Shown here piece by piece: positions 1,512-59,037 of a stretch of DNA of 64,000 nt. Source of the stretch: a virus. The stretch is from IMG/VR virus record IMGVR_UViG_3300021959_007960, positions 64,001 to 128,000 of that record; one strand, 5' to 3'. A model generated the notes under the pieces. The model searched no databases, had not been told where the DNA came from, and was given only the letters and a program-made list of their open reading frames with translations. The position numbers were made by a program, and so were the translations under genes. Every line of letters begins with the position of its first letter. The first letter of the stretch is position 1.

Positions 1512-1539
1512 ATTATAGGCTAATCTTGAACTTTGTCAA
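1512..1539 (-). promoter_or_regulatory. sigma70-type promoter for ssb
   Basis: TTGACA-16nt-TATAAT; -35 overlaps the dnaE-C stop codon; overlapped by an imperfect AGATTA/TAATCT hairpin followed by a T-run. Confidence 0.7.
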
Positions 1540-3137
1540 GACTGTGGAATAAAAATTTTATCCACTATTAAACTTTCCTTATCTTTAGATCTATTTCCTT
1601 TAATAATAACAATATTTCCATCAAATAAAACATTTTGATAAACTCTATATGTCTCTGGAAATATAATAATAGAATCTAAAACTCCTGTACTATCTGACAG
1701 GCTCAAAAATGCCATTTCAGCACCTTTGTTTTTTCCTGATTTAGTTTTGACTACATTTACTTGTTCTATTTCTCCAGCCAATACTACTTCTTTTTGAGCA
1801 TTTTTTAAGAAATCCCCACAAGTACAATTTGTATTAGAAACATCATACATGTCAATTCTGGAGCAGGATATGGAGTATCCTAATAGTTCATATTCTTTAT
1901 CAGAAATCCACTCTATTGAGTCGTTTAAGTCAAATGGTGGTTTGTCTATACTTTTAATATGATTGTTGACAATTGCTTGTCTTCTAATATTAATTTTATC
2001 TAACATTAGTTTTTGCAGTATGTCTTTTATGGTCGAGTCTTCAGAGATGTATTTTTGACATTTTTCTATTTCTTTTTTTGTTAGATCTGAAATTATACTA
2101 TATTCAAATAACATGCAGTTTCTAGTTTTGCCATAATGATCCATTGCCCCAGAAGATATCAAGCCTTTAACTGCTGTGCTATTCAAGTTTAGTAATATAT
2201 TAAAAAGTAATTCTATCCAACTTAATTTATCTATATCATAATCTTTTACTAAAGTCTCTAGCTTCTTAAAAACAGATTGACCAACACCCTTAATATCTGT
2301 CAAACCAAAATATATAATTTTATTTTTTAAAACAAAATATTGGTTTAGCTTTCTAATATCTGGCGTGGAAACCAAGATGTTCATTTGAGAAGCATTTTGT
2401 ATGAGTTCTTTGATTTCTTGTTGTGTATCTATTTTATCCTTAGCAAATTTAAGATATGACGCAAAAAATGTTCTGGTGAAGTGTGCTTTGCTATATGCAG
2501 ATAAGTAAGCATTCATTGCATAGCTAACAGCATGACTTTTATTAAAGCTGTATCTTTGGCTTTTTTCAATCCAAGAAAATATTTGTTCTGCTTGTTCAGC
2601 GGAAATAATATCTAATTTTTTACAACCTTTAATAAATTTGTCTTTTAGCTTAGACATCTCTCCTGCTTTTTTCTTACCAATAGCTTTACGCAGCATATCT
2701 GCTTCCTGTAAGTCAAAACCAGCTAATTCTTTAGCAATCTGCATAGCCTGTTCTTGATAAACCATTTCTCCAAAAGTATTTTTAAGAATAGGTTCTAGAG
2801 CAGGGTGAAAGTAATCTATAGACTCTAGTCCGTTTTTCTTGTCTATGTAATGATTACTAACTGTCTTGCTATCTCTTACAGCCTCCAAACATCCCGGTCG
2901 CATAATACTAATTAAGGCTGAAAGTTGCTCTATAGAATCTGGCTTGAGTTTTTTAGCCATACTTCTTCCAAGTCTGGACTCTAGCTGAAAACAGCCTTTA
3001 GTATTTCCACTTGATATTAAATCCCAAGTAGCATTACATTTTAAGTTTATAGAAGAAATTTGTGGATCAAAAATGATGTTTTCATTTTCGTCTAGAGCAA
3101 ATTTACATCCACAGTTTTTGTATTCAAAGTATTTCAT
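1536..3137 (-). CDS. dnaE: DNA polymerase III alpha, C-terminal half (fingers, HhH, OB)
   Basis: GCFQLES, MRPG, VYQEQ, ADMLRKAIGKK, YSFNKSHAVSY, FGLTDIKGVG, C-terminal OB-fold MAFLSLSD. Confidence 0.93.
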   Translation of the reverse strand: MKYFEYKNCGCKFALDENENIIFDPQISSINLKCNATWDLISSGNTKGCFQLESRLGRSMAKKLKPDSIEQLSALISIMRPGCLEAVRDSKTVSNHYIDKKNGLESIDYFHPALEPILKNTFGEMVYQEQAMQIAKELAGFDLQEADMLRKAIGKKKAGEMSKLKDKFIKGCKKLDIISAEQAEQIFSWIEKSQRYSFNKSHAVSYAMNAYLSAYSKAHFTRTFFASYLKFAKDKIDTQQEIKELIQNASQMNILVSTPDIRKLNQYFVLKNKIIYFGLTDIKGVGQSVFKKLETLVKDYDIDKLSWIELLFNILLNLNSTAVKGLISSGAMDHYGKTRNCMLFEYSIISDLTKKEIEKCQKYISEDSTIKDILQKLMLDKINIRRQAIVNNHIKSIDKPPFDLNDSIEWISDKEYELLGYSISCSRIDMYDVSNTNCTCGDFLKNAQKEVVLAGEIEQVNVVKTKSGKNKGAEMAFLSLSDSTGVLDSIIIFPETYRVYQNVLFDGNIVIIKGNRSKDKESLIVDKIFIPQS

Positions 3138-3993: not shown

Positions 3994-5871
3994 TTATACT
4001 CCTTGTTTTAACATTGAAGATATGTTCATGATTTTATCTAATACCGCTACTCCTAGAATATCAAATTTAATCACTCCAATGTTCTCTAGGTCTTGCATTT
4101 CCATACCAGCTATCAAATTCTTATTTTTGGTATCATATACCATCGGACAAATATTACTTAGTTTTTCTGGAGCAATCACGACTCCAGCAGCATGTTTGGA
4201 TTGATTTGTTTTAGTACCCTCTAGTCTAATAGACTGTTCAAAGCGTTTTGACAAGGGCCCTTGTAGATTTCCTTCTTTATCTATCGAACACCACTCTTTT
4301 AAATCTTTAGCTTTATTTTCTAAAGTCCACTTAATAATAGATGCCTCTCCCTGTTCTTTTTTCATTTCTTCTAACTCATCAGAAATTTTAGCTTCATCAG
4401 GTATGTTTTTAGTAATTTTATTCATGTCTTCAAAAGACAAATTACCATACGCCCTTAAAACATCTTTCAATGCACCTCGACCTTTCATTGTATTAAAAGT
4501 TAACATTTGAGAAACTTTGTCTTCTCCATAAGTTTTTTTAATGTATTCAATAATACCTTCTCTCTTATCAATAGGAACATCTAAATCAATATCTGGCATA
4601 GAAACTCTATCTTTAGTATTTCTACCAGCGTTATAAAATCTATCAAACAATAAGTCGTATTTCATAGGATCAATTGAAGTAATACCCAAAAGGTAAGAAA
4701 CCAGACATCCTGCTGCACTACCTCTACCCGGCCCCGGCAACCAAGAAGAATTTCTAATATATTTAACGATATCTTGTACAATTAAAAAATAACTAGATAG
4801 ACCAGCACCATGCAAAACATCAAATTCATATTTTAATCTGCTGACATATTTATCTTGTATTTGCTTATCTAAGCCATTAAGTTTGTTATTTCTCCAACCT
4901 TCTCTACAAAGTTGTCTTAAATAGTCTGAGTCAGAATCATACTCACTAGGATATTGAAAAGGTGGTAAAATAGGCTGACTAAGAATATTATAATCTTCAC
5001 ACAATTGATCTACAAATATTGTATTTTCTATTTCTTCTTCAGTATGTAAACCATGCATTTCTTCGCTAGATGGTATGTAATACTTGTCACTATTGAAAAA
5101 GCAAGATAATCCAACCTCTATATTATTTTGTAATTTATGATTCACAGCAGATAGAGTTGTTCTCATATTGTTGCACAATAAAATTCTTTGATCTACTGCA
5201 TCTTCTTGTTTTGCATAATGTGCATCGGGTGTGCAGATAACCTTAGTTTGTGTAGAATGTCCAAGCGATCTAATGCTATCAGTAAGTTCAACTTGAATAG
5301 GGTTTGCTATTCTATCTATTAATTGAGCTTCTAAAAATACGTTTTCTTTTCCAAAGATATTATGTAAGTGCGATATGTGGTTTGTTGCGTCTTTCTTCCA
5401 GCTATCACTTATCTTATCTTCGACTACAATACGGTTGGCTAATGTAGAACCTAAATGTCCTGTAATCGCTATAATGTTATCATCTAACAAATCCCCTAAA
5501 GTATCTAAATCCACTCTAGGTTTGTGATAGAATCTATCAGGATGGTTAGACTCTGAAACTATTTTAATTAAAGTTTTCCATCCCTGTAGATTTTTACATA
5601 ATACAACAAGGTGTTCTAGTTTTGCGTTTTCTTTTTTCTTTTCTTTAGAACACTTTTTAGATATGTAAAGTTCACAACCTAAAATGGGTTTGATATTATT
5701 GCTTTTTAATTGTTGATAAAATTGAACGGCTCCAGAGATTGAACCATGATCTGTTATAGCACAAGACGTTGCTCCTATAGTTTTACATCTGTTAACAATG
5801 TCTTTAGGTTTACTTAAACCATCCAATAAAGAATAATGAGTGTGAACATGCAAAGGAGTATATAATTTCAT
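3994..5871 (-). CDS. dnaE: DNA polymerase III alpha, N-terminal half (PHP + palm)
   Basis: HVHTHYSLLDG, TDHG, DAHY, GRGSAAG, PDIDLD, HAAGVV, KFDILG. Confidence 0.95.
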   Translation of the reverse strand: MKLYTPLHVHTHYSLLDGLSKPKDIVNRCKTIGATSCAITDHGSISGAVQFYQQLKSNNIKPILGCELYISKKCSKEKKKENAKLEHLVVLCKNLQGWKTLIKIVSESNHPDRFYHKPRVDLDTLGDLLDDNIIAITGHLGSTLANRIVVEDKISDSWKKDATNHISHLHNIFGKENVFLEAQLIDRIANPIQVELTDSIRSLGHSTQTKVICTPDAHYAKQEDAVDQRILLCNNMRTTLSAVNHKLQNNIEVGLSCFFNSDKYYIPSSEEMHGLHTEEEIENTIFVDQLCEDYNILSQPILPPFQYPSEYDSDSDYLRQLCREGWRNNKLNGLDKQIQDKYVSRLKYEFDVLHGAGLSSYFLIVQDIVKYIRNSSWLPGPGRGSAAGCLVSYLLGITSIDPMKYDLLFDRFYNAGRNTKDRVSMPDIDLDVPIDKREGIIEYIKKTYGEDKVSQMLTFNTMKGRGALKDVLRAYGNLSFEDMNKITKNIPDEAKISDELEEMKKEQGEASIIKWTLENKAKDLKEWCSIDKEGNLQGPLSKRFEQSIRLEGTKTNQSKHAAGVVIAPEKLSNICPMVYDTKNKNLIAGMEMQDLENIGVIKFDILGVAVLDKIMNISSMLKQGV

Positions 5872-49578: not shown

Positions 49579-49938
49579 TTAATTTAAGTTATCAAACAAA
49601 CCTCTGTAGTAACGTGGTTCTTTTAATATGTATTTAGAGTGACTTTGTAAATAGTTTATATATCTCTGTGCAAGTTTATTATCAGTAAAGTACTCTTTTT
49701 TCCATAAAGGTTGACTTGCCATACCTTCTGGTAGTTCTATAGGTTCTGGGTTTGTATTTGCTCCCACTGTCCATACATTGTCTTGTTCTTGTACTATATC
49801 TTTAATAGCGTCTTCCAGCCATAATTCCCAAGTTTCCCAATCAAATTGAAACTCTATTGGTTCTTGGTTTGTTTCTGGGTAATAATTGTAATAATCATCA
49901 TCATATTCGTTATGTTCTGGTTCTTCTTTATCATACAT
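49579..49938 (-). CDS. Hypothetical acidic protein
   Basis: AGGAG SD, downstream of promoter. Confidence 0.65.
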   Translation of the reverse strand: MYDKEEPEHNEYDDDYYNYYPETNQEPIEFQFDWETWELWLEDAIKDIVQEQDNVWTVGANTNPEPIELPEGMASQPLWKKEYFTDNKLAQRYINYLQSHSKYILKEPRYYRGLFDNLN

Positions 49939-49979: not shown

Positions 49980-50007
49980 ATTATACCCCACAATTCAGAA
50001 ATGTCAA
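49980..50007 (-). promoter_or_regulatory. sigma70-type promoter
   Basis: TTGACA-16nt-TATAAT. Confidence 0.75.
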
Positions 50008-50011
50008 CACA

Positions 50012-50075
50012 GAAAAGAGGTGTGGCGGGATCGAACCGCCATAGCCCTAATTGCCCACCTACTATCACAGGAAAC
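50012..50075 (-). ncRNA. tRNA-like structured element (T-arm + partial acceptor stem) with antisense 5' tail; may double as a terminator
   Basis: GTTTCCTGTGATAGT-AGGTG...TGGCGG-TTCGATC-CCGCCA-CACCT-CTTTT. Confidence 0.5.
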
Positions 50076-50914
50076 TAAAACTCATCATCATCATCTTCTT
50101 CAAATTGATCCCAATAATCTTCATCATACTCATCGTAAACTGTAGAGTATTCTTCATTATCAACATAGGAGTCTGCTTCAAATTCAGCCTTATAAAGAGG
50201 CTTTGGCAATTCACCCTGATACAGACCGACTACTTCATATTTACAAGTACGAAGTTTCTCACAATTACAATCGCTAGGAACACTAACAACATCTTCAGGA
50301 TTGATTTTAACAATCACGATATTATCACCAGCATCAATACTACCATAAGTAGCGACATAGTTCAACGCACCTGCATGAAGACCTTGTGAACATCCAACCT
50401 TACGGTTATCGTCTACCTTTGCTCTACGCATTTCGCAGACCTTGCCAACACTATTGTCAAATGTACCTCTCCACTTATCCTTAAAATTACTATTGACTGC
50501 TTTATATGCAAGGAAGCATCCGTCTTCAGTGATAGGTAGATTTTCATGCTCCAAGAAGTCATACAGTTCTTGCTGACTCTGCATACTTGGATTTTGCATA
50601 AGATTTTCCAAGAACTTTACAAGAGGCTCGAAAGGCAAACCTTTGCTCATAAATTCTAGGATACGCTTACTGATGCTGCCATGAACTTCTTCACCCTCAA
50701 ACATTACCTTGCCATTTACGATTGATACCTGTCCTTGGCTAAAAGTAGCAACCGCTTTTTCAATGTCTACCAATTCTAGCAACTCATCTTCTGTTGCTGT
50801 TGGTAGTGCCTCCAGAATCAACTTGTAATTAGTATGATCTGGAATTACTTGGTGAGACTTATTTTTTAAGATCACCGTCAAGTTACCATCAACCCACATA
50901 AAAGGAACACTCAT
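50075..50914 (-). CDS. rIIB: rIIB-like protein
   Basis: FLENLMQNPS..ELYDFL..ITEDGCFLAYK...CSQGLH...VKINPEDVVSVP.D...KLRTCKY. Confidence 0.92.
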   Translation of the reverse strand: MSVPFMWVDGNLTVILKNKSHQVIPDHTNYKLILEALPTATEDELLELVDIEKAVATFSQGQVSIVNGKVMFEGEEVHGSISKRILEFMSKGLPFEPLVKFLENLMQNPSMQSQQELYDFLEHENLPITEDGCFLAYKAVNSNFKDKWRGTFDNSVGKVCEMRRAKVDDNRKVGCSQGLHAGALNYVATYGSIDAGDNIVIVKINPEDVVSVPSDCNCEKLRTCKYEVVGLYQGELPKPLYKAEFEADSYVDNEEYSTVYDEYDEDYWDQFEEDDDDEF

Positions 50915-50938
50915 AATTAAACTCCTGTGATAAAAACC

Positions 50939-53584
50939 TTAAACCAAATTTCCTATTGCTGTTCTCAGTTCGCTGAGTTCAACATTGTCAAACCATTTGT
51001 CTCGACCATAGTAACCATTGTTGTGAATATTTGTAGGATCACTGTCCTTGATCTTCTCAATATCCAACTCGTCGTTACTACTAACAATATACTTTAGTAT
51101 CGGTGACTTGTCAATAGTACCTTTAAGAATTTTTCTAAGAATATCCATTTTAGGCAGGGTCTTGATGATCGCCTGACTATGTGATTTCTTACCAGATGGC
51201 AATTCTTCATAACCATATAGTTTCTTAAATTCAAAAAGCATATTATCTAATTTAAGAATCTTAGTGTGAATATCCTTTGCATCTTCTACGATGTTGTATT
51301 CACTTGCTATATTATTTACATGCTGTTCAAGTCTTTGTCTACTAAATACTCTGAGATTAAAGTATTCACTATTTGCAACCTGAGCAAAGTAGTACATGAG
51401 TAGCCACTCATCAATAGCCTTAGTGACTGTCTCGTTTTTAATATAGTCTTTGTAGTCAAGACCATAGATATTTAAAAGATTAGCCATGACAACTCTATCT
51501 GAACGCTCAGGCTGACTACTCCAACTTCTTGTCTTCTTAAAATCTGAAGTAGAATACTCTTTGTCACAATAGTTTATGACTGCATCATACTTACCTACTT
51601 CTTCTCTTAATTTCTTAGAGATTTTTGCAGCCTTGCCCTTAAACCATTTGTTAAAGGAAACTAGATTGATGCCTTGCTTTTCTAGTTTAGATACTGAACT
51701 TTGCTTGATAGCATAGATATTATATCGCTTGAATAGTAAAGCACCTAAGACGTTATCTTTACCTGCTAGATTATAAATCTTATGTAAATCAGGATAAGGG
51801 CTAATAGACTTATATCTAGTAATAGGAACATAGATTACTTGTTCAGCATCTTCTAATCCTCCTATCAGACTATCACTTAATTCACTAAGCATGTTAGAGT
51901 CATTAAGATTATTACCACCAAGACTAGAACACTCATCTGGCTGGTAATCTTTAGAACTTTTTAGTAGAAAGATTTCGTCCTTACTGATCATACCAGCACC
52001 AGTACCAGTTCTTCCCTTGGTACTAGATTGTAGCAGACTACGATACTCAGAGATATTCTTGACGTTTTCTTCGCCACCAATATCTTTGATAAGTTTAGCG
52101 AAACCCTCACCAGAATCTTCTGCTGGATTTTGAGTGTCTACCATAAGATATGCCATACAATCATTTTGATTACAATATCTAATCGCAATCTTCTTGGCAG
52201 TCTCAGGACTTCTAGTATCGCAGACAAAGAAGGCTAGAGGATTACTCTTACGCTTATTATCCCAATAATTAGACGATCTACCCTGTAGACTTTCGTGATG
52301 GATTTTATCTGTTAGATATAGCATTCTCTTAGAACGATGACTAGCAGTACGATAATTAATAACATACAACTGTTTGTGCTTACCTAATTTATAATCTAAA
52401 TCTTCACCAGCAGACAAATCATGCTTTTTGCCTTCTGGATCAACCCACTCTGCACCAGCAGTATATCCACCAGCAATATCAGCCAGCTTATAATATGTCT
52501 GGTAAGCATCTACAAGATTAGTACACTCTTCAACCTTGGTTGACATATTGCTCTTGAGTTGTAGATAAATATCTTGAGTCTTTTCTCTAAGAGTTTTAAT
52601 AACACCCTTAGTATACTGTAGACCTTCTCTACTAACATCCATCTCTAGTTCACCAATATCGCAGGTAATTTCAAGATACATACCAGAATTTAGAATCTCT
52701 TTGACTAGATTAGTCCAGTTATCTACGTCTGCTTTCTTAAATGCTCTGTTCCATCTTTGGATAGCATCACTCTTTTGCTCTTGTTCTTCTTTGCCGATAA
52801 TTTTATCGGAATCTACTGGGTACGCAATATTACCCATGATAGCCACAATACCAGCACCGGGACTATTATATGTGCTAGGATATTTGTCATCATTATCAGA
52901 GATTCTACCAACACGCCAGTTTGTTCCTTCTATAATTGTATTAGTATGAGAATAAGCATGATTATGAAGAAGTCTGCAAGTACCACCTTCCATCATCGGT
53001 TTAGTCTTAAAGTAATGAAAGATTCTTTTAGACTTATTAGTAAACTCTTGGAAGTCGCTTTGCTTTACTGCAAAACTAATCTCAAGACCATTAGGCTCAT
53101 CGGTATGACTGATTCCGAATAGACTTAGACTAGGCACACCATTCTCGTCCATAGCCGCTATGTAGTTGTATGCTTGCCCATTGTAGTAACTAGTTGTACT
53201 AAAACTCTTAGTGTAAGCAAATGGACTCTTAGAACCAAGACCAAGACAACCAGTAAAATCGTTACTGTCATTCTTATTACTAGCCCCGTAAGTCGTATAA
53301 AGTTCTTCCATGTCTTCCTGAGAAAGTCCCGTACCATAATCTCTCACCGTAAAATTGGGATTAGCTTGCGTAGGTAGAACAACCTTAAAGGGATTCCGAT
53401 TCCCTGCCGCAATATGAGCATCGTTAGCATTAGTGGACAGTTCACGAATAACTGCCATCACTTTATCAGAATACAAGGAGTCTGATAAAATCTTAAACAT
53501 TTTACTTGTTTGAGCAATACTAAACTGGTTATTGCTGTCAACACCATTAGAATGAATTTCAACTGTACGATCTGCAAGTTTCAT
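50939..53584 (-). CDS. rIIA: rIIA-like protein (N-terminal GHKL ATPase)
   Basis: LYSDK..AVIRELSTNA.DAH, VRDYGTGLS, GCLGLGSKSPFAY, SREGL; adjacent to rIIB. Confidence 0.92.
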   Translation of the reverse strand: MKLADRTVEIHSNGVDSNNQFSIAQTSKMFKILSDSLYSDKVMAVIRELSTNANDAHIAAGNRNPFKVVLPTQANPNFTVRDYGTGLSQEDMEELYTTYGASNKNDSNDFTGCLGLGSKSPFAYTKSFSTTSYYNGQAYNYIAAMDENGVPSLSLFGISHTDEPNGLEISFAVKQSDFQEFTNKSKRIFHYFKTKPMMEGGTCRLLHNHAYSHTNTIIEGTNWRVGRISDNDDKYPSTYNSPGAGIVAIMGNIAYPVDSDKIIGKEEQEQKSDAIQRWNRAFKKADVDNWTNLVKEILNSGMYLEITCDIGELEMDVSREGLQYTKGVIKTLREKTQDIYLQLKSNMSTKVEECTNLVDAYQTYYKLADIAGGYTAGAEWVDPEGKKHDLSAGEDLDYKLGKHKQLYVINYRTASHRSKRMLYLTDKIHHESLQGRSSNYWDNKRKSNPLAFFVCDTRSPETAKKIAIRYCNQNDCMAYLMVDTQNPAEDSGEGFAKLIKDIGGEENVKNISEYRSLLQSSTKGRTGTGAGMISKDEIFLLKSSKDYQPDECSSLGGNNLNDSNMLSELSDSLIGGLEDAEQVIYVPITRYKSISPYPDLHKIYNLAGKDNVLGALLFKRYNIYAIKQSSVSKLEKQGINLVSFNKWFKGKAAKISKKLREEVGKYDAVINYCDKEYSTSDFKKTRSWSSQPERSDRVVMANLLNIYGLDYKDYIKNETVTKAIDEWLLMYYFAQVANSEYFNLRVFSRQRLEQHVNNIASEYNIVEDAKDIHTKILKLDNMLFEFKKLYGYEELPSGKKSHSQAIIKTLPKMDILRKILKGTIDKSPILKYIVSSNDELDIEKIKDSDPTNIHNNGYYGRDKWFDNVELSELRTAIGNLV

Positions 53585-53655
53585 TTGTAGTCTCCAAAAA
53601 AAAGTTTCCTGTCCTGTGATATTCTAATTATATCATCGTCTGTTTGCTGTGTCAA
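53585..53655 (-). promoter_or_regulatory. Promoter and conserved leader of rIIA
   Basis: TTGACA-17nt(contains AGACGAT)-TATAAT then TATCACAGGACAGGAAACT8GGAGACTA. Confidence 0.8.
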
Positions 53656-53658
53656 GCA

Positions 53659-53928
53659 TTAATCTGATTCGGGATTTTCTGAATCATCTTCGTAATCTTC
53701 TGGCTCGACATGATAAGGATCAAATTCCTCTTCATCTTCTTCACCAGCTTCTTCTATAAACTCAAACATAGACATTTTATCAAGTAAAAAATCTAGTTTG
53801 TCATCTATAATTGATAAACTTTTAATCATGCTATTTGTCCTTTTAACTAATACATTATATTTAGTTTCTAAAGACTTATGATGTTTATCTATTTCTATTA
53901 GGACTTTTTCTAATTCGTTATCTGCCAC
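53659..53928 (-). CDS. Coiled-coil/acidic hypothetical protein
   Basis: GGAGG SD before GTG at 53928. Confidence 0.65.
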   Translation of the reverse strand: MADNELEKVLIEIDKHHKSLETKYNVLVKRTNSMIKSLSIIDDKLDFLLDKMSMFEFIEEAGEEDEEEFDPYHVEPEDYEDDSENPESD

Positions 53929-54029
53929 ATTAATACCTCCAGATAAAAATATCAGTGTATTAATTTTATACACCAAATACTGCACCAATCAATATCTATC
54001 CAATAATTCATTATTTACCATTTACATTC

Positions 54030-54701
54030 CTATATGCTTGACAAATTATCGTATCTCTCTAGTAAATCACCCATTATCCTATTTATAAAAAATATCTCGC
54101 ACTCATTAAATTTATTTAAATATTCTTTATGATCTAGGTTTCTTACATGACTGATTAAGCCGTTATTAACAATATCGTCACTTCGATCTTTACCATGAAA
54201 AACAAATTCATTCTTAAAATTATTATACACTTTATCTAATAAATCTATCCTATCAATTTTATTAAGAATTAAAGACATATATCTTTTAGGTTTATCCATT
54301 ATGTCTTCGTATTTCAGAAAACAAACATTACTTATGCTTAATATTTTTTCATACACATTTCTTTGTCTCTGTAGTAATTTGCCACTAATAACATATTCTG
54401 ACAAACTTGATTCTCTAATTTCTTTTCTACGTTTCCATGATTCATCGTTAAAATTATCAGTACAGTGTGTCCATCCAACAGAATAATATCTAGAAATTAT
54501 TCTATTTATAGGATGTCTCAATACGATAATATCAGAATCTTTAGTAGACTGAAACCATTCTTGGTGGTTTGCTTCGGAAAACACTCTGTCAAAATCTATA
54601 ACATTATGATTACATAAATGGTTAATATAATCGTATATTGTACTCTGTAAACTACTACCAGATTTATGTATCGCTCTAATCTTTAGTTGATGGTTGGTCA
54701 T
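54030..54701 (-). CDS. Sulfotransferase family protein
   Basis: HKSGSS (5'-PSB), RHP..RIISRY (3'-PB), LKYED. Confidence 0.75.
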   Translation of the reverse strand: MTNHQLKIRAIHKSGSSLQSTIYDYINHLCNHNVIDFDRVFSEANHQEWFQSTKDSDIIVLRHPINRIISRYYSVGWTHCTDNFNDESWKRRKEIRESSLSEYVISGKLLQRQRNVYEKILSISNVCFLKYEDIMDKPKRYMSLILNKIDRIDLLDKVYNNFKNEFVFHGKDRSDDIVNNGLISHVRNLDHKEYLNKFNECEIFFINRIMGDLLERYDNLSSI

Positions 54702-54918
54702 TTACATTCCTGTATTCTTCATCAGTCCACATTTTGTATACTAAATAAAAATCTCTAGGTTTCCACTGTCTCACCTTTTCCATATCGGATACTTCTCCCC
54801 TTGGAACGGAGAGAAGCATCACTAGATATAAAAATAGCAACCCAAAAATAATCCAAAAACTTTTATCTTTAGTCAATAGTCTGTGTTTCTCTACCATTAC
54901 GAGTAATTGCAGCAGCAA
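54676..54918 (-). CDS. Small membrane protein
   Basis: One TM; start probably TTG near 54876. Confidence 0.5.
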   Translation of the reverse strand: MLLQLLVMVEKHRLLTKDKSFWIIFGLLFLYLVMLLSVPRGEVSDMEKVRQWKPRDFYLVYKMWTDEEYRNVNDQPSTKD

Positions 54919-55846
54919 ATGCTCTTAAATCTACGTTATCATTAATAGTTCTAGTAGAACCGTCTGAATATACGCAGTTCATTACGCCGGGGTGCATACT
55001 ATATGCTTCACCGTCATTAATAACATTAAATGGCACATTGCCAGCACAATTCTTACATTTATCACCATTAGAATCAACACCATGTAATTTAAATGGCCCC
55101 AATGAATCTGCCCAACTAATACACTGGTTAGTATTCCCTGTAGCACTTTTACCATTACTAGCTTTATAAGTATCAGGTCTGCTTGCACACTCTACAATCA
55201 TAAGAGTGTTAGAAAAACCATCAACAATTTCTTGCTCTTTAGTTACTTTATCTTTAATTAAACAACCATCATCATTAGTTTTACTTGCATAAGGATCGCT
55301 ACCAGCAGGAAAGATTTTATCTTTTACCCCAGTGAACACCTCATAGTCTGTATAACCAAGAAGATTAGGGTCTAAACTTGGTGCAGCACTGTCGCTATCT
55401 CTACTAGGCCCATCAATACTGACATACCCACCCACAGGAGGAAGGGCAGTTGGACATTTAAATACAGATGCTTCTGTAACAATAGCGGCAGTATTTTGCC
55501 ACCAATGTTTATTGAAGTCATAAATGTTTGCTACGTTACCCTGTTCTAAATTTGCCAAAACAAATGCTCTCCAGCTATGTTCTGTTCGTGAAGGATTGCC
55601 GAGAGAACTAGGAGTTTCAGATAGGTCTTTAGCTTCAACAGTCCATGCGGCAGCAGGAAAATATCTTTTTTGATCTAAACTCATGTGCATAGCCAAACCT
55701 TGTTGTTTTAAATTATTAGAACAAGATGCTCGTCTTGCTGCTTCTCTAGCAGATTGTACAGCAGGTAGTAATAAACCTACTAAAACGCCGATAATTGCAA
55801 TAACTACCAGTAATTCGATGAGAGTAAAACCTTTGCGATTTTTCAT
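54869..55846 (-). CDS. DUF1559 family prepilin-like protein (Planctomycete-type)
   Basis: RKGFTLIELLVVIAIIGVLVGLLLPAVQSAREAARR.SC.NNLKQ; DGFSNT; H-X9-DG (HPGVMNCVYSDG). Confidence 0.95.
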   Translation of the reverse strand: MKNRKGFTLIELLVVIAIIGVLVGLLLPAVQSAREAARRASCSNNLKQQGLAMHMSLDQKRYFPAAAWTVEAKDLSETPSSLGNPSRTEHSWRAFVLANLEQGNVANIYDFNKHWWQNTAAIVTEASVFKCPTALPPVGGYVSIDGPSRDSDSAAPSLDPNLLGYTDYEVFTGVKDKIFPAGSDPYASKTNDDGCLIKDKVTKEQEIVDGFSNTLMIVECASRPDTYKASNGKSATGNTNQCISWADSLGPFKLHGVDSNGDKCKNCAGNVPFNVINDGEAYSMHPGVMNCVYSDGSTRTINDNVDLRAFAAAITRNGRETQTID

Positions 55847-55961
55847 TATAAATTCCTCTTATATGGGGAAGTTTGGCGAGAGACTACAATTAGCCTTGAT
55901 TACCTATTATACCCATACCGGCAAAAAATACAAGGTCATAGACTGTTAGTATTGTGTTAAG

Positions 55962-56282
55962 TTAATAAGAATAAATATGTACAGGATTGCCCGTTAATTC
56001 TCTAATAAATTGTGTTGCTTCATGTATATCATAAAAATCAGCTATGGCTTTTCTGGATCTAAAATAATCTTTTTTATATACAGCAAATACTCTGTAAAAT
56101 GGATCATCTAAACCAAACTCATCAGTATCTAAAAAATCTTCTGCTGTTTTTAATTCTTGTATAATAGTACCACCATCGTAGTCATTCATTTCTCTACAAG
56201 TGATAATTTCAAAAGCATTAATAACAGATTGTTTATTAGTATTTAATGTAAAAGCATTACACAGTCTGTTTGACCGCTGCAT
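55962..56282 (-). CDS. Hypothetical protein
   Basis: Coupled ORF. Confidence 0.55.
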   Translation of the reverse strand: MQRSNRLCNAFTLNTNKQSVINAFEIITCREMNDYDGGTIIQELKTAEDFLDTDEFGLDDPFYRVFAVYKKDYFRSRKAIADFYDIHEATQFIRELTGNPVHIYSY

Positions 56283-56442
56283 TTTCTTGCTCCTGTAATT
56301 GTTTTTGTGCTTTGTGTAATTGTCTCAGTCTTTCTTTTTGTAGATAGTCGTAATATCCTAGAAAAACTTGAGAAGTGATTACGCCCATCCCTGCGATGAG
56401 CGTAACCACAATACCGCACACGAATAGTGCGAAATTATCCAT
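56257..56442 (-). CDS. Small single-TM protein
   Basis: Hydrophobic N-terminus, coiled-coil tail. Confidence 0.65.
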   Translation of the reverse strand: MDNFALFVCGIVVTLIAGMGVITSQVFLGYYDYLQKERLRQLHKAQKQLQEQENAAVKQTV

Positions 56443-56602
56443 TATTAAAATATCCCCCTAGCGAAAGGATGCTAGGAACCCATAGACCAACAAAAATAGC
56501 CTGTTCCTTGGCAGTTGATTGATCTCCTAAAAACCAAAGAGAAACACTTAGTACAAAACTGGCAAACGCCGCTACAATAAAGTAACTCTTACTATTCATC
56601 AT
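56435..56602 (-). CDS. Small 2-TM membrane protein (55 aa)
   Basis: Hand-read MMNSKSYFIVAAFASFVLSVSLWF...AIFVGLWVPSILSLG. Confidence 0.7.
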   Translation of the reverse strand: MMNSKSYFIVAAFASFVLSVSLWFLGDQSTAKEQAIFVGLWVPSILSLGGYFNNG

Positions 56603-56627
56603 CTATCTTTCTAGTTAAGGTAAAACA

Positions 56628-57035
56628 TTAAAACATATTATCATAAGCTGCATCCCACAACTTATCAAAAATCTCTTCCATCATTTTATCGTTATATTTT
56701 CTTGCATCTTTATCTTTTGCAAAGAAGCCTATTTGGTCTAATCTTTCTTTGTATAGTTCAAGAAAACTTTCTTTAGTTTTTCTTTTACACTTTATATGGC
56801 CTCGGAACATAGCAACACAATGTACTATTTCCATATAGGTATCAATAACACCAGCTACAAATTTCCATTGTTCTCTAGATAATTCTATGGTAGCGAAATT
56901 TTTTTCGTGTTCGTATTCTTCTTTATCTAGTGGAGTACCATATAGATGATTTTGTTGTATTAAAAATTCATCATCATCTTCAGCAACCCAATCTCCTGAT
57001 CTTATCATGTCTGTTATATCTTGCCAATCACTCAT
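56628..57035 (-). CDS. Hypothetical protein
   Basis: AAGGA SD. Confidence 0.6.
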   Translation of the reverse strand: MSDWQDITDMIRSGDWVAEDDDEFLIQQNHLYGTPLDKEEYEHEKNFATIELSREQWKFVAGVIDTYMEIVHCVAMFRGHIKCKRKTKESFLELYKERLDQIGFFAKDKDARKYNDKMMEEIFDKLWDAAYDNMF

Positions 57036-57071
57036 AATTTATTCCTTTGATTAAATTAATATTACAAATAA

Positions 57072-57144
57072 TAGGAGTGGCGGGAGTCGAACCCGCACTG
57101 GAAGGATTTTAAGTCCTTTGTCTCTGCCTTTGGACTACACTCCC
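57072..57144 (-). tRNA. tRNA-Leu (anticodon UAA), short variable loop, CCA not encoded
   Basis: GGGAGTG acceptor, GTC/GAC D-stem, AAGGA-CTTAAAA-TCCTT, GCGGG-TTCGACT-CCCGC, discriminator A. Confidence 0.9.
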
Positions 57145-57151
57145 AAAACCT

Positions 57152-57400
57152 CTATGAAATCTCTTGTAATTTTTTTGAGAGTGCTACTAATTCATCAATA
57201 TTAGTAGAATCACTTTGGTTTTGAAGAGTAGGTATTTCAACACCCTTAGAGCGCAGAGTGTCCTTCATCTTTTTATAACGGGTCTTTGTAGAACTTACAG
57301 TTTGACCAACCATTCTAGCAAGTTCTGGGAATGTTTTGCAGGCATGGACTGCCATTAAAAACATCTGATCGTTACATCTGCCACAAGTTTTTTTACTCAT
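57152..57400 (-). CDS. Small HTH-like protein
   Basis: TFPELARMVGQTVSSTKTR. Confidence 0.55.
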   Translation of the reverse strand: MSKKTCGRCNDQMFLMAVHACKTFPELARMVGQTVSSTKTRYKKMKDTLRSKGVEIPTLQNQSDSTNIDELVALSKKLQEIS

Positions 57401-57439
57401 TTTATTTCCTTTCCAATTAGAGTAAGTAATACTGCTTGT

Positions 57440-57480
57440 ATTCTATCCTATAGTATCGTCTTTGTCAACCACTATCTTTA
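57440..57480 (-). promoter_or_regulatory. AGACGATAC-class promoter
   Basis: TAAAGAT-N5-TTGACA-AAGACGATACTATAGGA-TAGAAT. Confidence 0.75.
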
Positions 57481-57496
57481 CTTTTTTTAAAAAACT

Positions 57497-57576
57497 CGTA
57501 AGTCCTTGTCAGATAAAGACTTACGTTAAATAGTACTTTCTAAATAACGTAAGTCCTTTTGTAGTAACGAGTTAGC
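57497..57576. repeat. Two tandem CGTAAGTC-N13-GACTTACG palindromic sites
   Basis: Perfect copy 57497-57525; degenerate copy 57548-57576; 51 bp period. Confidence 0.75.
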
Positions 57577-57580
57577 TACT

Positions 57581-57769
57581 TTAATCTTCTTTTTTTGGCA
57601 ACAATATACCTAATAGTAAGTATACCCAAAAGATAATACTACCAGAGGCAATAGCACCAAAAACAGTTAGTAGTCTAATAATAGTAACATCAATGCCTGT
57701 GTAATCAGATAGACCAGCACAAACACCAAAAATCATACCGTCTTTTTTATTTTTCAATAAGTTACTCAT
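57581..57769 (-). CDS. pspC: PspC domain protein
   Basis: DGMIFGVCAGLSDY.GID...IRL...YL...ILLP. Confidence 0.9.
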   Translation of the reverse strand: MSNLLKNKKDGMIFGVCAGLSDYTGIDVTIIRLLTVFGAIASGSIIFWVYLLLGILLPKKED

Positions 57770-58073
57770 ATTTTTTTAACCACTCCGTAAAGTTATAAGG
57801 GGTAAAACCACGCAATTCACCAATCTTTTTATCGTTGTCAAAGATAAATGAAGTAGGATAAACTTTTATATGTAACTTATTTACTAATTCAGGATGCTCG
57901 TCAATATCAATGTATTCTAAATCAAAATTCTTAATAATATCTGGATTATCTTTCATATACTGTTTTTGCTTAACACAGTATGGACACCAATCTGCGCCTA
58001 TAACAAGAAGGTCTTTGGCGTATGCTGTACTACAACTTAACAGTAGTAGAATTAATAATTTGAATAATTTCAT
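57762..58073 (-). CDS. Secreted thioredoxin-like protein
   Basis: Signal peptide, WCPYC, cis-Pro YPT. Confidence 0.85.
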   Translation of the reverse strand: MKLFKLLILLLLSCSTAYAKDLLVIGADWCPYCVKQKQYMKDNPDIIKNFDLEYIDIDEHPELVNKLHIKVYPTSFIFDNDKKIGELRGFTPYNFTEWLKKYE

Positions 58074-58252
58074 TTGGAGGTATTCCTATTAGTAAATAAT
58101 ATTCATATAAGCTAAACATATATACACCCCCATAGATTATTGTTTATTTTCTGTCTTTTGCTAGATTAACAAAAAAACAAACTACACTTAAATCTACAAC
58201 AACTACGATCCACCATACACTTAAAACATCTAGTAAAGTATGATCCATCTTT

Positions 58253-58957
58253 TTAACTTTCTAGTACATAAGACCAGTAACGAGAGTCTTGCTTGTCTTG
58301 CAAGTCATCCCAATATACACATCTGGCAATATATGATGGTATTTTATTCTTACCACAATTTACACTCCAATGCTGTTCCATTTTTTTGTATTTTTCTGTA
58401 CCTACTTTGCTCTTATTATAGCTTAGATGTTCCATGTTGTAAAGGCGAAGCTGATGAACATCTCCACATAAAACTCTTGCTTCATTAGGATGAATCATTT
58501 CTAAAGCAAAACTAACCTTAGCCATACCCAATCCAATAATCTTATCTACAATAGCATCACGTTTTTTGACATGGTATTTTTTAGTAGTAAGATAGAAATC
58601 TTTAGGATTTTTCCAAAACTGTTCACTGAAATTCCAAATATACTTTGTCCTGTTGTTATAAAGACCAACACCAGAATGTTTCAGTTTGTCTAAGAGCGTT
58701 TCTTGGTCGTCAATCCATTCTTCGTAGTTCTTAATGGCATTGTAGCCACGGCAATTCCCCTGCCAACTTGTATGAACAGAACAATAAGCAAACAAATAAC
58801 GCCTAAAAATATCGCCGTGATTCTGTGGTCGTACACTCTCCCAGTACTCCTTATATGCTTTAATCTTATCTCTAGGAAATTCTTTAAAAAATTCATCAGC
58901 CTTACTTCTGCAATATGTCGTATTCTTTTCTGTTTTAGTTTCTGTTGCAATAACCAT
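58253..58957 (-). CDS. HhH-GPD DNA glycosylase-like protein (OGG2-like)
   Basis: GLYNNRTKYI, IIGLGMAKVSF (HhH), GDVH; start set at MVIAT after the GGAG SD. Confidence 0.65.
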   Translation of the reverse strand: MVIATETKTEKNTTYCRSKADEFFKEFPRDKIKAYKEYWESVRPQNHGDIFRRYLFAYCSVHTSWQGNCRGYNAIKNYEEWIDDQETLLDKLKHSGVGLYNNRTKYIWNFSEQFWKNPKDFYLTTKKYHVKKRDAIVDKIIGLGMAKVSFALEMIHPNEARVLCGDVHQLRLYNMEHLSYNKSKVGTEKYKKMEQHWSVNCGKNKIPSYIARCVYWDDLQDKQDSRYWSYVLES

Positions 58958-59037
58958 GATAGTCTCCAAAAGTTTCAAGTCCTGTGATACATTCAATTCT
59001 ATACTATTGGTATCGTCTTGTCAAGGTGCAATCTTTA
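58958..59037 (-). promoter_or_regulatory. AGACGATAC-class promoter and conserved leader
   Basis: TAAAGAT-N6-TTGACA-AGACGATACCAATAGTA-TAGAAT then TATCACAGGACTTGAAACTTTTGGAGACTA. Confidence 0.8.

Follow-up and report, generated by a model that had tools for sequence, protein, structure and literature searches.

The rIIA and rIIB genes of a large uncultured phage have leaders that are complementary to one short element on the same strand, located directly behind the rIIB stop codon, and we propose that this element is an antisense partner through which the rII messenger RNA (mRNA) could close on itself. The genes lie on the minus strand of a 64,000-nucleotide (nt) stretch of IMG/VR virus record IMGVR_UViG_3300021959_007960 (positions 64,001 to 128,000 of that record), which we call the window and whose own numbering is used throughout; the element is referred to as the anti-leader. 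Long-range RNA pairing that would mask the 5' end and the ribosome-binding region is the best reading of these sequences and, in our estimation, a fairly probable one. End-to-end pairing within the rII mRNA had been among the possibilities raised in a first-pass annotation of the same DNA, and for the window it is now favored by the presence of an antisense element in all 97 relatives in which one could be scored, by constraint on its codons, by compensatory changes, and by the rIIB leader as a second partner.

A rare motif shared by early leaders and an antisense element

Four exact copies of the 10-mer TATCACAGGA occur in the 64 kb of the window, against a chance expectation of 0.18 (standard deviation, 0.46), and none of 100 dinucleotide shuffles reached four. 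All four copies are intergenic and stand where the first-pass annotation had placed them. The three sense copies, all on the minus strand (50923-50932, 53612-53621, and 58980-58989), lie in the leaders of rIIB, rIIA, and a DNA glycosylase, respectively, and the fourth (50063-50072, plus strand, hence antisense with respect to the minus strand that is transcribed) follows directly on the rIIB stop. The 8-mer TCACAGGA is confined within the window to the same four places, and with one mismatch allowed the count of the 10-mer (8 copies versus 4.2 expected) is not significant. Orientation is uniform, with all leader copies in sense and all downstream copies in antisense on one transcribed strand. 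The genes, promoters, and leaders concerned are as follows.

50939..53584, minus strand: rIIA coding sequence, 881 amino acids (tblastn against annotated rIIA genes, 27-35% identity)
50075..50914, minus strand: rIIB coding sequence, 279 amino acids, stop TAG at 50075-50077 (PHROG RIIB families, 5e-72)
58253..58954, minus strand: Ogg-type HhH DNA glycosylase, 233 amino acids (Pfam Ogg-HhH PF22175, 3.9e-10)
53627..53655, minus strand: rIIA early promoter, TTGACA, 17-nt spacer with TG before the -10, TATAAT (12 of 12 in a consensus scan)
53585..53620, minus strand: rIIA 5' leader, predicted +1 at 53620 (A of ATCAC), from promoter geometry only
50915..50938, minus strand: rIIA-rIIB intergenic leader, sense motif TATCACAGGAG (50922-50932) overlapping the Shine-Dalgarno (SD) sequence (from sequence)
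58996..59024, minus strand: glycosylase early promoter, TTGACA, 17-nt spacer, TAGAAT (consensus scan)
58955..58989, minus strand: glycosylase leader, with motif at 58980-58989, GAAAC, U4 tract, and GGAGACTA; ATG at 58952-58954 (from sequence)

The identities assigned earlier to rIIA, rIIB, and the glycosylase are borne out by these matches, and the three leaders read as then given: TATCACAGGAC-AG-GAAAC-T8-GGAGACTAcaaATG for rIIA and TATCACAGGAC-TT-GAAAC-T4-GGAGACTAtcATG for the glycosylase, which are nearly identical from the motif through the start codon, and TATCACAGGAG for rIIB, 10 nt before its ATG. The rIIA leader holds the sense motif at 53612-53621, a second ACAGGA at 53607-53612, a U8 tract, the SD GGAG at 53592-53595, and the ATG at 53582-53584. 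A point absent from the first-pass annotation is that the rIIA and glycosylase copies start 6 to 7 nt past the -10 hexamer of near-perfect sigma-70 promoters, and the motif is therefore predicted to form the first 10 nt of both transcripts. The rIIA promoter with its extended -10 (GATGnTATACT) is kept in about 45 loci of a first set of relatives and also in a second set, as is a leader that starts with (T/C)ATCAC(AC)AGGA and ends in a U tract and GGAGA. The rIIB leader retains (T/A)TCACAGG(A) in 114 of 120 non-redundant relatives, and the distant rIIB leaders read ACAGGAAACAGGAG.

Whether the motif might simply be scattered had been raised before; every copy in the window lies between genes, and five related genomes (92-178 kb) hold 4 to 10 copies of the 8-mer each, versus 1 to 5 of a control word. 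This enrichment is weak, and the 8-mer is therefore not a general promoter or leader signal; we rejected a genome-wide role for it, the other hits being two further leaders and some coding sites. Further early leaders with the motif were seen at G002:C1:4160 (L081), G003:C1:40271 (L087), and G003:C1:35364 (L086). The motif appears as TTTAATTTCACAGGAG at the ribosome-binding site of a gene for a small Cys-rich protein (MPKGKKTCEKCG...), and one further early leader reads AACAGGAATCACAGGACACAGGA, with three repeats.

Conservation, placement, and codon constraint of the anti-leader

The antisense copy had been described as following immediately on rIIB, and it does, beginning at the G of the stop codon TAG. 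The GAGTTTT upstream of its core, formed by the last rIIB codons, adds a second short helix to the predicted duplexes. Two features are needed at this point.

50062..50085, minus strand: anti-leader element, core GTTTCCTGTGATA at 50063-50075 starting in the stop codon (predicted duplexes; homologues in 97 of 97 scorable relatives)
49579..49938, minus strand: conserved small acidic gene, 119 amino acids, without family match (homologues in relatives of about 130 amino acids)

The relatives are related IMG/VR contigs, of which that database holds hundreds, from uncultured aquatic large phages; 175 rII loci were fetched, with rIIB 71-99% identical to that of the window, and the non-redundant set comprises 124 loci, 97 of them with a scorable antisense element. 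Whether the antisense copy is present in relatives had been left as a check by the first-pass annotation, and each of the 97 scorable loci carries one: 12 only in the untranslated region (UTR; 0-4 nt after the rIIB stop), 83 only in a coding sequence, 2 in both, and none in neither (Fisher's test, 1e-13, uncorrected for phylogeny). Three clades, that of the window among them, have one or two antisense copies 0-4 nt past the rIIB stop, adjoining a transfer RNA (tRNA)-like element. In all other lineages this post-stop position is empty and TTTCCTGTGA(G/A)T is found instead further downstream, within the acidic gene of about 130 amino acids, where it is read as the codons (K)(S/K)F-P-V-(S/N) in a variable-length loop of the small acidic protein. 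The window's own small acidic gene (49579-49938) is without the F-P-V-S/N codons. These placements suggest that the anti-leader can move between UTR and coding sequence without loss.

The coding versions carry a signature of selection at the nucleotide level. Pro is encoded by CCT in 96 of 96 unique loop versions, compared to 37% across the same genes, and Val by GTG in 86 of 96, compared to 30%, whereas an equally conserved VPSD peptide within rIIB, used as a control, shows ordinary synonymous variation. It follows that nucleotides, and not only amino acids, are under selection at this site. Comparative sequence evidence supports the view that selection has maintained the antisense copy as a partner of the leaders. 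In distant lineages a second gene stands between rIIB and the small gene (L046:+1045, L079:+1113, L071:+1070, and L066:+1079 after the rIIB stop), which carries tandem CCTGTGA as the codons P-V-x-P-V-S (peptide YGDPMPV.PVS) and may provide an additional anti-leader site.

The same observations bear on the possibility that these sequences have no regulatory role, the leaders having come from recombined promoter-leader cassettes and the antisense copy having arisen by inverted duplication and persisted through drift or through selection on the protein. T4-like phages shuffle cassettes of this kind, repeated early-promoter/stem-loop (PeSL) units that have been proposed as recombination substrates (PMC4122927, PMC2839356). 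The phages considered here resemble them in having early-promoter units on unrelated genes and, in some relatives, a promoter-plus-stem-loop unit behind rIIB in place of the tRNA-like element; the similarity of the rIIA and glycosylase leaders, near-identical in the window clade only, likewise fits cassette sharing. Neutral cassette duplication accounts for that similarity, but not for a constrained antisense element, and PeSLs differ in having no antisense partner under codon-level constraint. With CCT and GTG held in 96 and 86 of the 96 loop versions, an element that shifts between UTR and coding sequence but is never lost, and the compensatory changes and top-ranked duplexes described below, we consider a neutral origin very unlikely.

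Complementarity between the leaders and the anti-leader

Within the window, the predicted duplexes of the three leaders with the anti-leader are as follows.

rIIA leader with 50062-50085: 9 bp (+1 to +9) and 7 bp (+13 to +19), -19.2 kcal/mol; 66 of 12,792 overlapping segments as good
rIIB leader with 50062-50085: 12 or more bp including the SD, -18.1 kcal/mol; 30 of 12,792 segments as good
glycosylase leader with 50062-50085: 9 bp, 9 bp, and extra pairs, -24.7 kcal/mol; best site on the 64-kb strand

By itself the window is only suggestive, and the case therefore rests on its relatives, in which we compared the rIIA leader by RNAduplex with all 40-nt segments of each locus (about 700-1,900 per locus). 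The anti-leader was the top partner of the rIIA leader in most lineages scanned and ranked second or third in most others. The best rIIA-leader duplexes reached -32.1 (L204), -36.8 (L219), -31.5 (L220), -29.9 (L213), and -37.1 (L259) kcal/mol, with z scores of -5.9 to -7.2, and in several lineages the complementarity to the rIIA leader spans 25-35 nt. The duplexes are built from two to four collinear helices, at +1 to +9, in the middle of the leader, and at the SD or the SD-AUG spacer, with the SD or spacer covered in several lineages (e.g., L018, L066, L213, L219, and L220). Helices that are contiguous in the target are separated by loops in the leader, so that spacing differs between the two sides; RNA loops tolerate such a difference and a fixed-geometry protein operator would not, which favors RNA pairing. 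Two sense copies in the leader accompany two antisense copies in the target (L219, L259, and UTRs of the L018 type). For the rIIB leader, too, the anti-leader ranked first among partners in at least nine lineages (L018, L045, L063, L072, L189, L209, L213, L220, and L249).

Compensatory changes between leader and antisense copy, which the first-pass annotation had suggested looking for, were found in several relatives. Leader AAUC is matched by target GAUU in L063 and L071 (Phe to Ile), GGU by ACC in L079 (Phe to Leu), and CAGGG by CCCUG in L259. A full switch has taken place in L029 and L030, where the leader now reads ACACAUACGAACUUUG and matches CAAAGUCGUGUGUG directly behind the rIIB stop; this partner is the best of 1,876 segments and is cognate-specific. 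Over 34 unique pairs, cognate duplexes averaged -23.5 kcal/mol and non-cognate duplexes -21.9 kcal/mol (7 of 20,000 permutations as good), a cognate advantage that is real but modest.

Two further candidates were not carried forward. L074 is without the leader motif and without the loop element, a joint absence that we count with the compensatory changes, and keeps the motif of the rIIB leader; we rejected it as a second compensated switch, its candidate partner lying in a RuvB-like open reading frame (ORF) and not being the top match. In L211, L243, L213, and L219, a coding site of rIIB some 250-290 nt ahead of the stop (codons DVVSVPSDCNCEK) is a strong predicted partner of the rIIA leader (to -30.8 kcal/mol), and it is the top match in L211 and L243; given that its codons vary normally, we do not claim this site as a selected partner.

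Several points weigh against pairing as the explanation. In the window, the rIIA duplex is modest at -19.2 kcal/mol and leaves the SD GGAG uncovered, and the anti-leader is neither the top nor the second or third partner of the rIIA leader there or in the near-identical L001. Non-cognate pairs do at least as well as the cognate one in many lineages, in which the shared core dominates. Most of the complementary positions belong to this invariant core and cannot covary. Deep conservation of these 7-8 nt in both leaders suggests an added role for the core, for instance in binding a protein or the ribosome. The mismatch tally (5 G-U compatible versus 3 of A-C type), made to tell RNA pairing from a DNA repeat, does not favor RNA. 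Because the relatives share ancestry, independent events must be fewer than the counts given above. A duplex that spans 3.5-6 kb, or that joins two mRNAs across a terminator-like element, is kinetically demanding. Finally, the RNA material consists of metatranscriptome contigs only, which hold no start, end, or strand information: contigs from four marine metatranscriptome runs cover the rIIA, rIIB, and DUF1559 genes of relatives, the uncovered parts carry no meaning, and the occurrence of relatives' contigs in marine RNA libraries (DUF1559 included) is not proof of transcription.

A conserved core also bears on two alternatives that the first-pass annotation had named. One is a DNA operator, in which TCACAGGA would bind a protein at +1 of the rIIA and glycosylase promoters and before rIIB, with the inverted downstream copy as an auxiliary site and looping as between lac O1 and O2. 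The auxiliary operator lac O2 lies inside a coding sequence and is a precedent for such a placement. It speaks for an operator that the site overlaps +1 of two strong promoters, that the core is invariant across distant lineages and present in both orientations, and that the tally of 5 G-U versus 3 A-C mismatches does not favor RNA. The site is, however, without dyad symmetry, and the 25-35 nt of lineage-specific complementarity, in collinear blocks spaced differently in leader and target, go against it. So do the switch in L029, which altered rIIA leader and downstream copy jointly to a new sequence, and the downstream copies themselves, which without exception are inverted and occupy the transcribed strand. 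The analysis turned up no candidate DNA-binding protein, and we regard an operator as unlikely.

The other alternative is a protein-binding RNA motif, with ACAGGA/AGGA as the site of a CsrA/RsmA-like host protein, a RegA-like phage repressor, or ribosome standby, and the antisense copy as something secondary, e.g., a competitor. The core is conserved beyond the needs of pairing, some leaders carry two or three AGGA, reading ACAGGA and spaced 5-8 nt (two ACAGGA in the rIIA leader of the window, three in the L086 leader), distant rIIB leaders read ACAGGAAACAGGAG, and T4 RegA represses rIIB translation (PMC3014915). T4 RegA and RegB exert protein-mediated post-transcriptional control over early mRNAs, with rIIB as a classical RegA target (PMC3014915), and the likeness to the present case would lie in a shut-off of early genes at ribosome-binding sites; RegA sites are A+U-rich and RegB cuts GGAG, and neither bears sequence resemblance to the phage motif. 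A canonical site would be A-N-GGA presented in a hairpin loop, which ACAGGA is not, the repeats follow one another at just 5-8 nt, and such a motif leaves the codon-constrained antisense element and the L029 switch unexplained. As a substitute for RNA pairing we find it improbable, although protein binding is compatible with pairing and does not exclude it.

The glycosylase leader and the tRNA-like element

The first-pass annotation had drawn rIIA, rIIB, and the glycosylase into one circuit, of which the two rII leaders stand, with a conserved partner, and the glycosylase does not beyond the window clade. Across 80 glycosylase loci, the leader keeps ACAGGA in close relatives only and elsewhere reads TATCACATTTGG or CATACACTTTGG. 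It pairs with the anti-leader as well as the rIIA leader does in L018 and L014, both close relatives, and pairs well only in the window clade; in eight other genomes it pairs no better than with non-cognate elements, and we therefore rejected it as a conserved partner outside the window clade.

Behind the anti-leader stand a structured element and the promoter of the next gene.

50013..50060, minus strand: tRNA-like three-way element (single-sequence folds)
49980..50007, minus strand: next early promoter, TTGACA-16-TATAAT, which drives the small downstream gene (consensus scan)

The T-arm-like hairpin that had been described behind the antisense copy is present as GGCGG-TTCGATC-CCGCC with a U run next to it. 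The element as a whole comprises an acceptor-like stem AGGTG/CACCT (50056-50060 with 50018-50022) that encloses the hairpin, a mini-arm, the T-arm (50023-50041), and the U run (50013-50016). Each of the two stems has undergone compensatory change in relatives (GGCGG, GGTGG, GGAGG, and GATGG; AGGTG, GGGTG, GAGTG, and AGATGG), and the relatives' elements (L045:6865-6927, L065:5286-5384, and L071:6907-7005) share the loop TTCGAT(C/T) and have a mini-arm or longer inserts. ARAGORN calls in the window only a tRNA-Leu (57071-57145) and not this element, and Rfam gave no family above threshold for it; a permissive Rfam search returned tRNA-Sec at 12.9 bits, against a cut-off of 47, for the window element and a 17-nt T-arm match to beta-tmRNA in L065. 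RNAalifold on a short alignment recovered the T-arm and mis-registered the outer stem through a 1-nt alignment shift. On this comparative evidence we take the element to be a separate conserved structured RNA, probably a terminator or processing signal; it could act as a terminator, as an RNase P/Z processing signal, or as a tRNA mimic. In relatives without it, rIIB is followed by an early promoter whose -10 lies in the loop of a GC-rich stem (TGCGGGG-TATAAT...CCCGCA), and such stem-embedded promoters occur in L005, L006, L008, L009, L017, L020, L021, L027, L029, and L031 (compare the window promoter at 49980-50007).

The first-pass annotation had also suggested a small RNA (sRNA) derived from the rIIB 3' UTR, which in the window clade would be an RNA of about 65 nt, made up of antisense seed and tRNA-like hairpin or terminator, acting in trans on the three leaders. 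In its favor, 1-4 nt separate the seed from a structured, terminator-like element in the window clade, the glycosylase leader finds its best match on the 64-kb strand in the anti-leader, and in L018 and L014 that leader pairs as well as the rIIA leader. Seed and hairpin adjoin, however, only in the window clade and in the L032 and L061 clades. In 83 of 97 relatives the element is inside coding sequence and away from the hairpin, with the seed up to 1.8 kb off, and other clades keep the hairpin without an adjacent seed. As a general model the sRNA fails on these grounds; for the window clade, where no internal promoter or processing site was seen, we give it a low probability.

Proposed mechanism

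We propose that the rIIA leader, over the span that runs from the predicted +1 to the ribosome-binding region, would pair with the anti-leader 3.5-6 kb downstream on the same strand, and that the ribosome-binding region of rIIB would pair with the same element. Co-transcription of rIIA and rIIB is likely on account of the 24-nt gap between them and the lack of a predicted terminator in it. In the window, the anti-leader behind the rIIB stop is then part of the rIIA-rIIB primary transcript, which could therefore close its 5' end to its 3' end. More speculatively, a cut at the 5' side of the tRNA-like element, as in a tRNA precursor, would leave the paired sequences at the two extreme ends of the mRNA. 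By covering the 5' end and the landing zone of the 30S subunit, the duplex would lower translation of rIIA and rIIB and/or change mRNA decay, whether through less initiation, through altered 5'-end-dependent decay, or through an RNase III site as in icaR. Of the earlier suggestion that the antisense copy represses translation, the complementarity has held up as conserved, and we infer the repression itself.

Timing and translation would both enter into such a switch. Its partner is made only after at least 3.6 kb have been transcribed, so that the effect would be delayed and the first ribosomes would load freely. In every scorable locus the anti-leader lies within translated sequence or 0-4 nt past a stop, and ribosomes passing it would melt it, so that pairing is probably sensitive to translation. 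A more complete picture, which we offer tentatively and with more doubt than confidence, is that an overprinted anti-leader dictates the F-P-V-S/N peptide and forms a ribosome-opened, transcription-delayed switch that closes the rII 5' end and both ribosome-binding sites, hopping between coding and post-stop positions without loss.

Relation to known systems

Pairing of this type has precedents outside double-stranded DNA phages. In the Min Jou interaction of phage MS2, a distant coding sequence sequesters a ribosome-binding site and translating ribosomes open it. The present anti-leader is similar in lying where ribosomes pass (83 coding, 12 at 0-4 nt past the stop, and 2 both), but MS2 has an RNA genome and its partner is upstream in the coat gene, whereas here the genome is DNA, the partner is downstream, and the coupling to translation is putative.

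Closest in layout is icaR of Staphylococcus aureus, whose 3' element is reported to pair with the 5' leader or SD region, preventing formation of the initiation complex and giving rise to a substrate for RNase III (PMC3868564). In both cases a short pyrimidine-rich element behind a coding sequence is complementary to the leader of the same mRNA, and the window layout is formally the same, with the anti-leader between the rIIB stop and a terminator-like element on the strand of the leaders. The rIIB duplex predicted for the window covers its SD, the duplexes of several lineages of relatives cover the SD or the SD-AUG spacer, and the rIIA duplex of the window leaves GGAG uncovered. The phage system differs in that its predicted mRNA is polycistronic and 3.6 kb long, the pairing would begin at the nucleotide predicted to be the 5' terminus, one partner would serve two leaders, and in most relatives the partner lies in coding sequence; it is also known from its sequence alone. 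In Bacillus subtilis hbs, pairing between 5' and 3' UTRs is reported to affect ribonuclease action and to tie stability to translation (PMC5737220). The likeness is again in the pairing of both ends of an mRNA; hbs is short and monocistronic and the effect there is on stability, whereas the phage element could either stabilize or repress.

A scan of the T4 rII region did not find a comparable antisense partner of the leader, and in the literature searched we found no description of end-to-end mRNA pairing in a double-stranded DNA phage. The type of pairing is already known, and what would be new is long-range leader masking in a DNA phage operon with a partner overprinted on coding sequence.

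Genomic context

The window (G+C content, 32%) covers a replication and early region of a large phage, with DNA polymerase (two ORFs), primase, a DnaB-like helicase, UvsX, and ribonucleotide reductase, all on the minus strand. No close cultured relative was found, and rIIA is at most 35% identical to that of known phages. The family-B DNA polymerase is split into ORFs at 1536-3137 and 3994-5871 (minus strand; 533 and 625 amino acids) with about 850 nt between them, which match the C-terminal and N-terminal halves of one PHROG, phrog_405. A DUF1559 protein encoded at 54869-55846 (minus strand; Pfam, 2.8e-40 and 1e-9) has an N-terminal prepilin methylation motif, and this DUF1559/N-methyl prepilin-like gene hints at a planctomycete-type host, which the first-pass annotation had assumed.

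Implications

Very few cases are known in which the two ends of a bacterial-type mRNA pair over a long range (icaR, hbs). The roughly 120 distinct versions of the rII locus amount to a rich set of natural mutants, with movement between UTR and coding sequence, codon constraint, and one full sequence switch, and this natural variation makes the hypothesis directly testable even though the phage is uncultured. If true, the anti-leader would be a clear example of an RNA regulatory element that shapes protein sequence, and it would give these phages a protein-independent route to tune or shut off the classic rII early genes.

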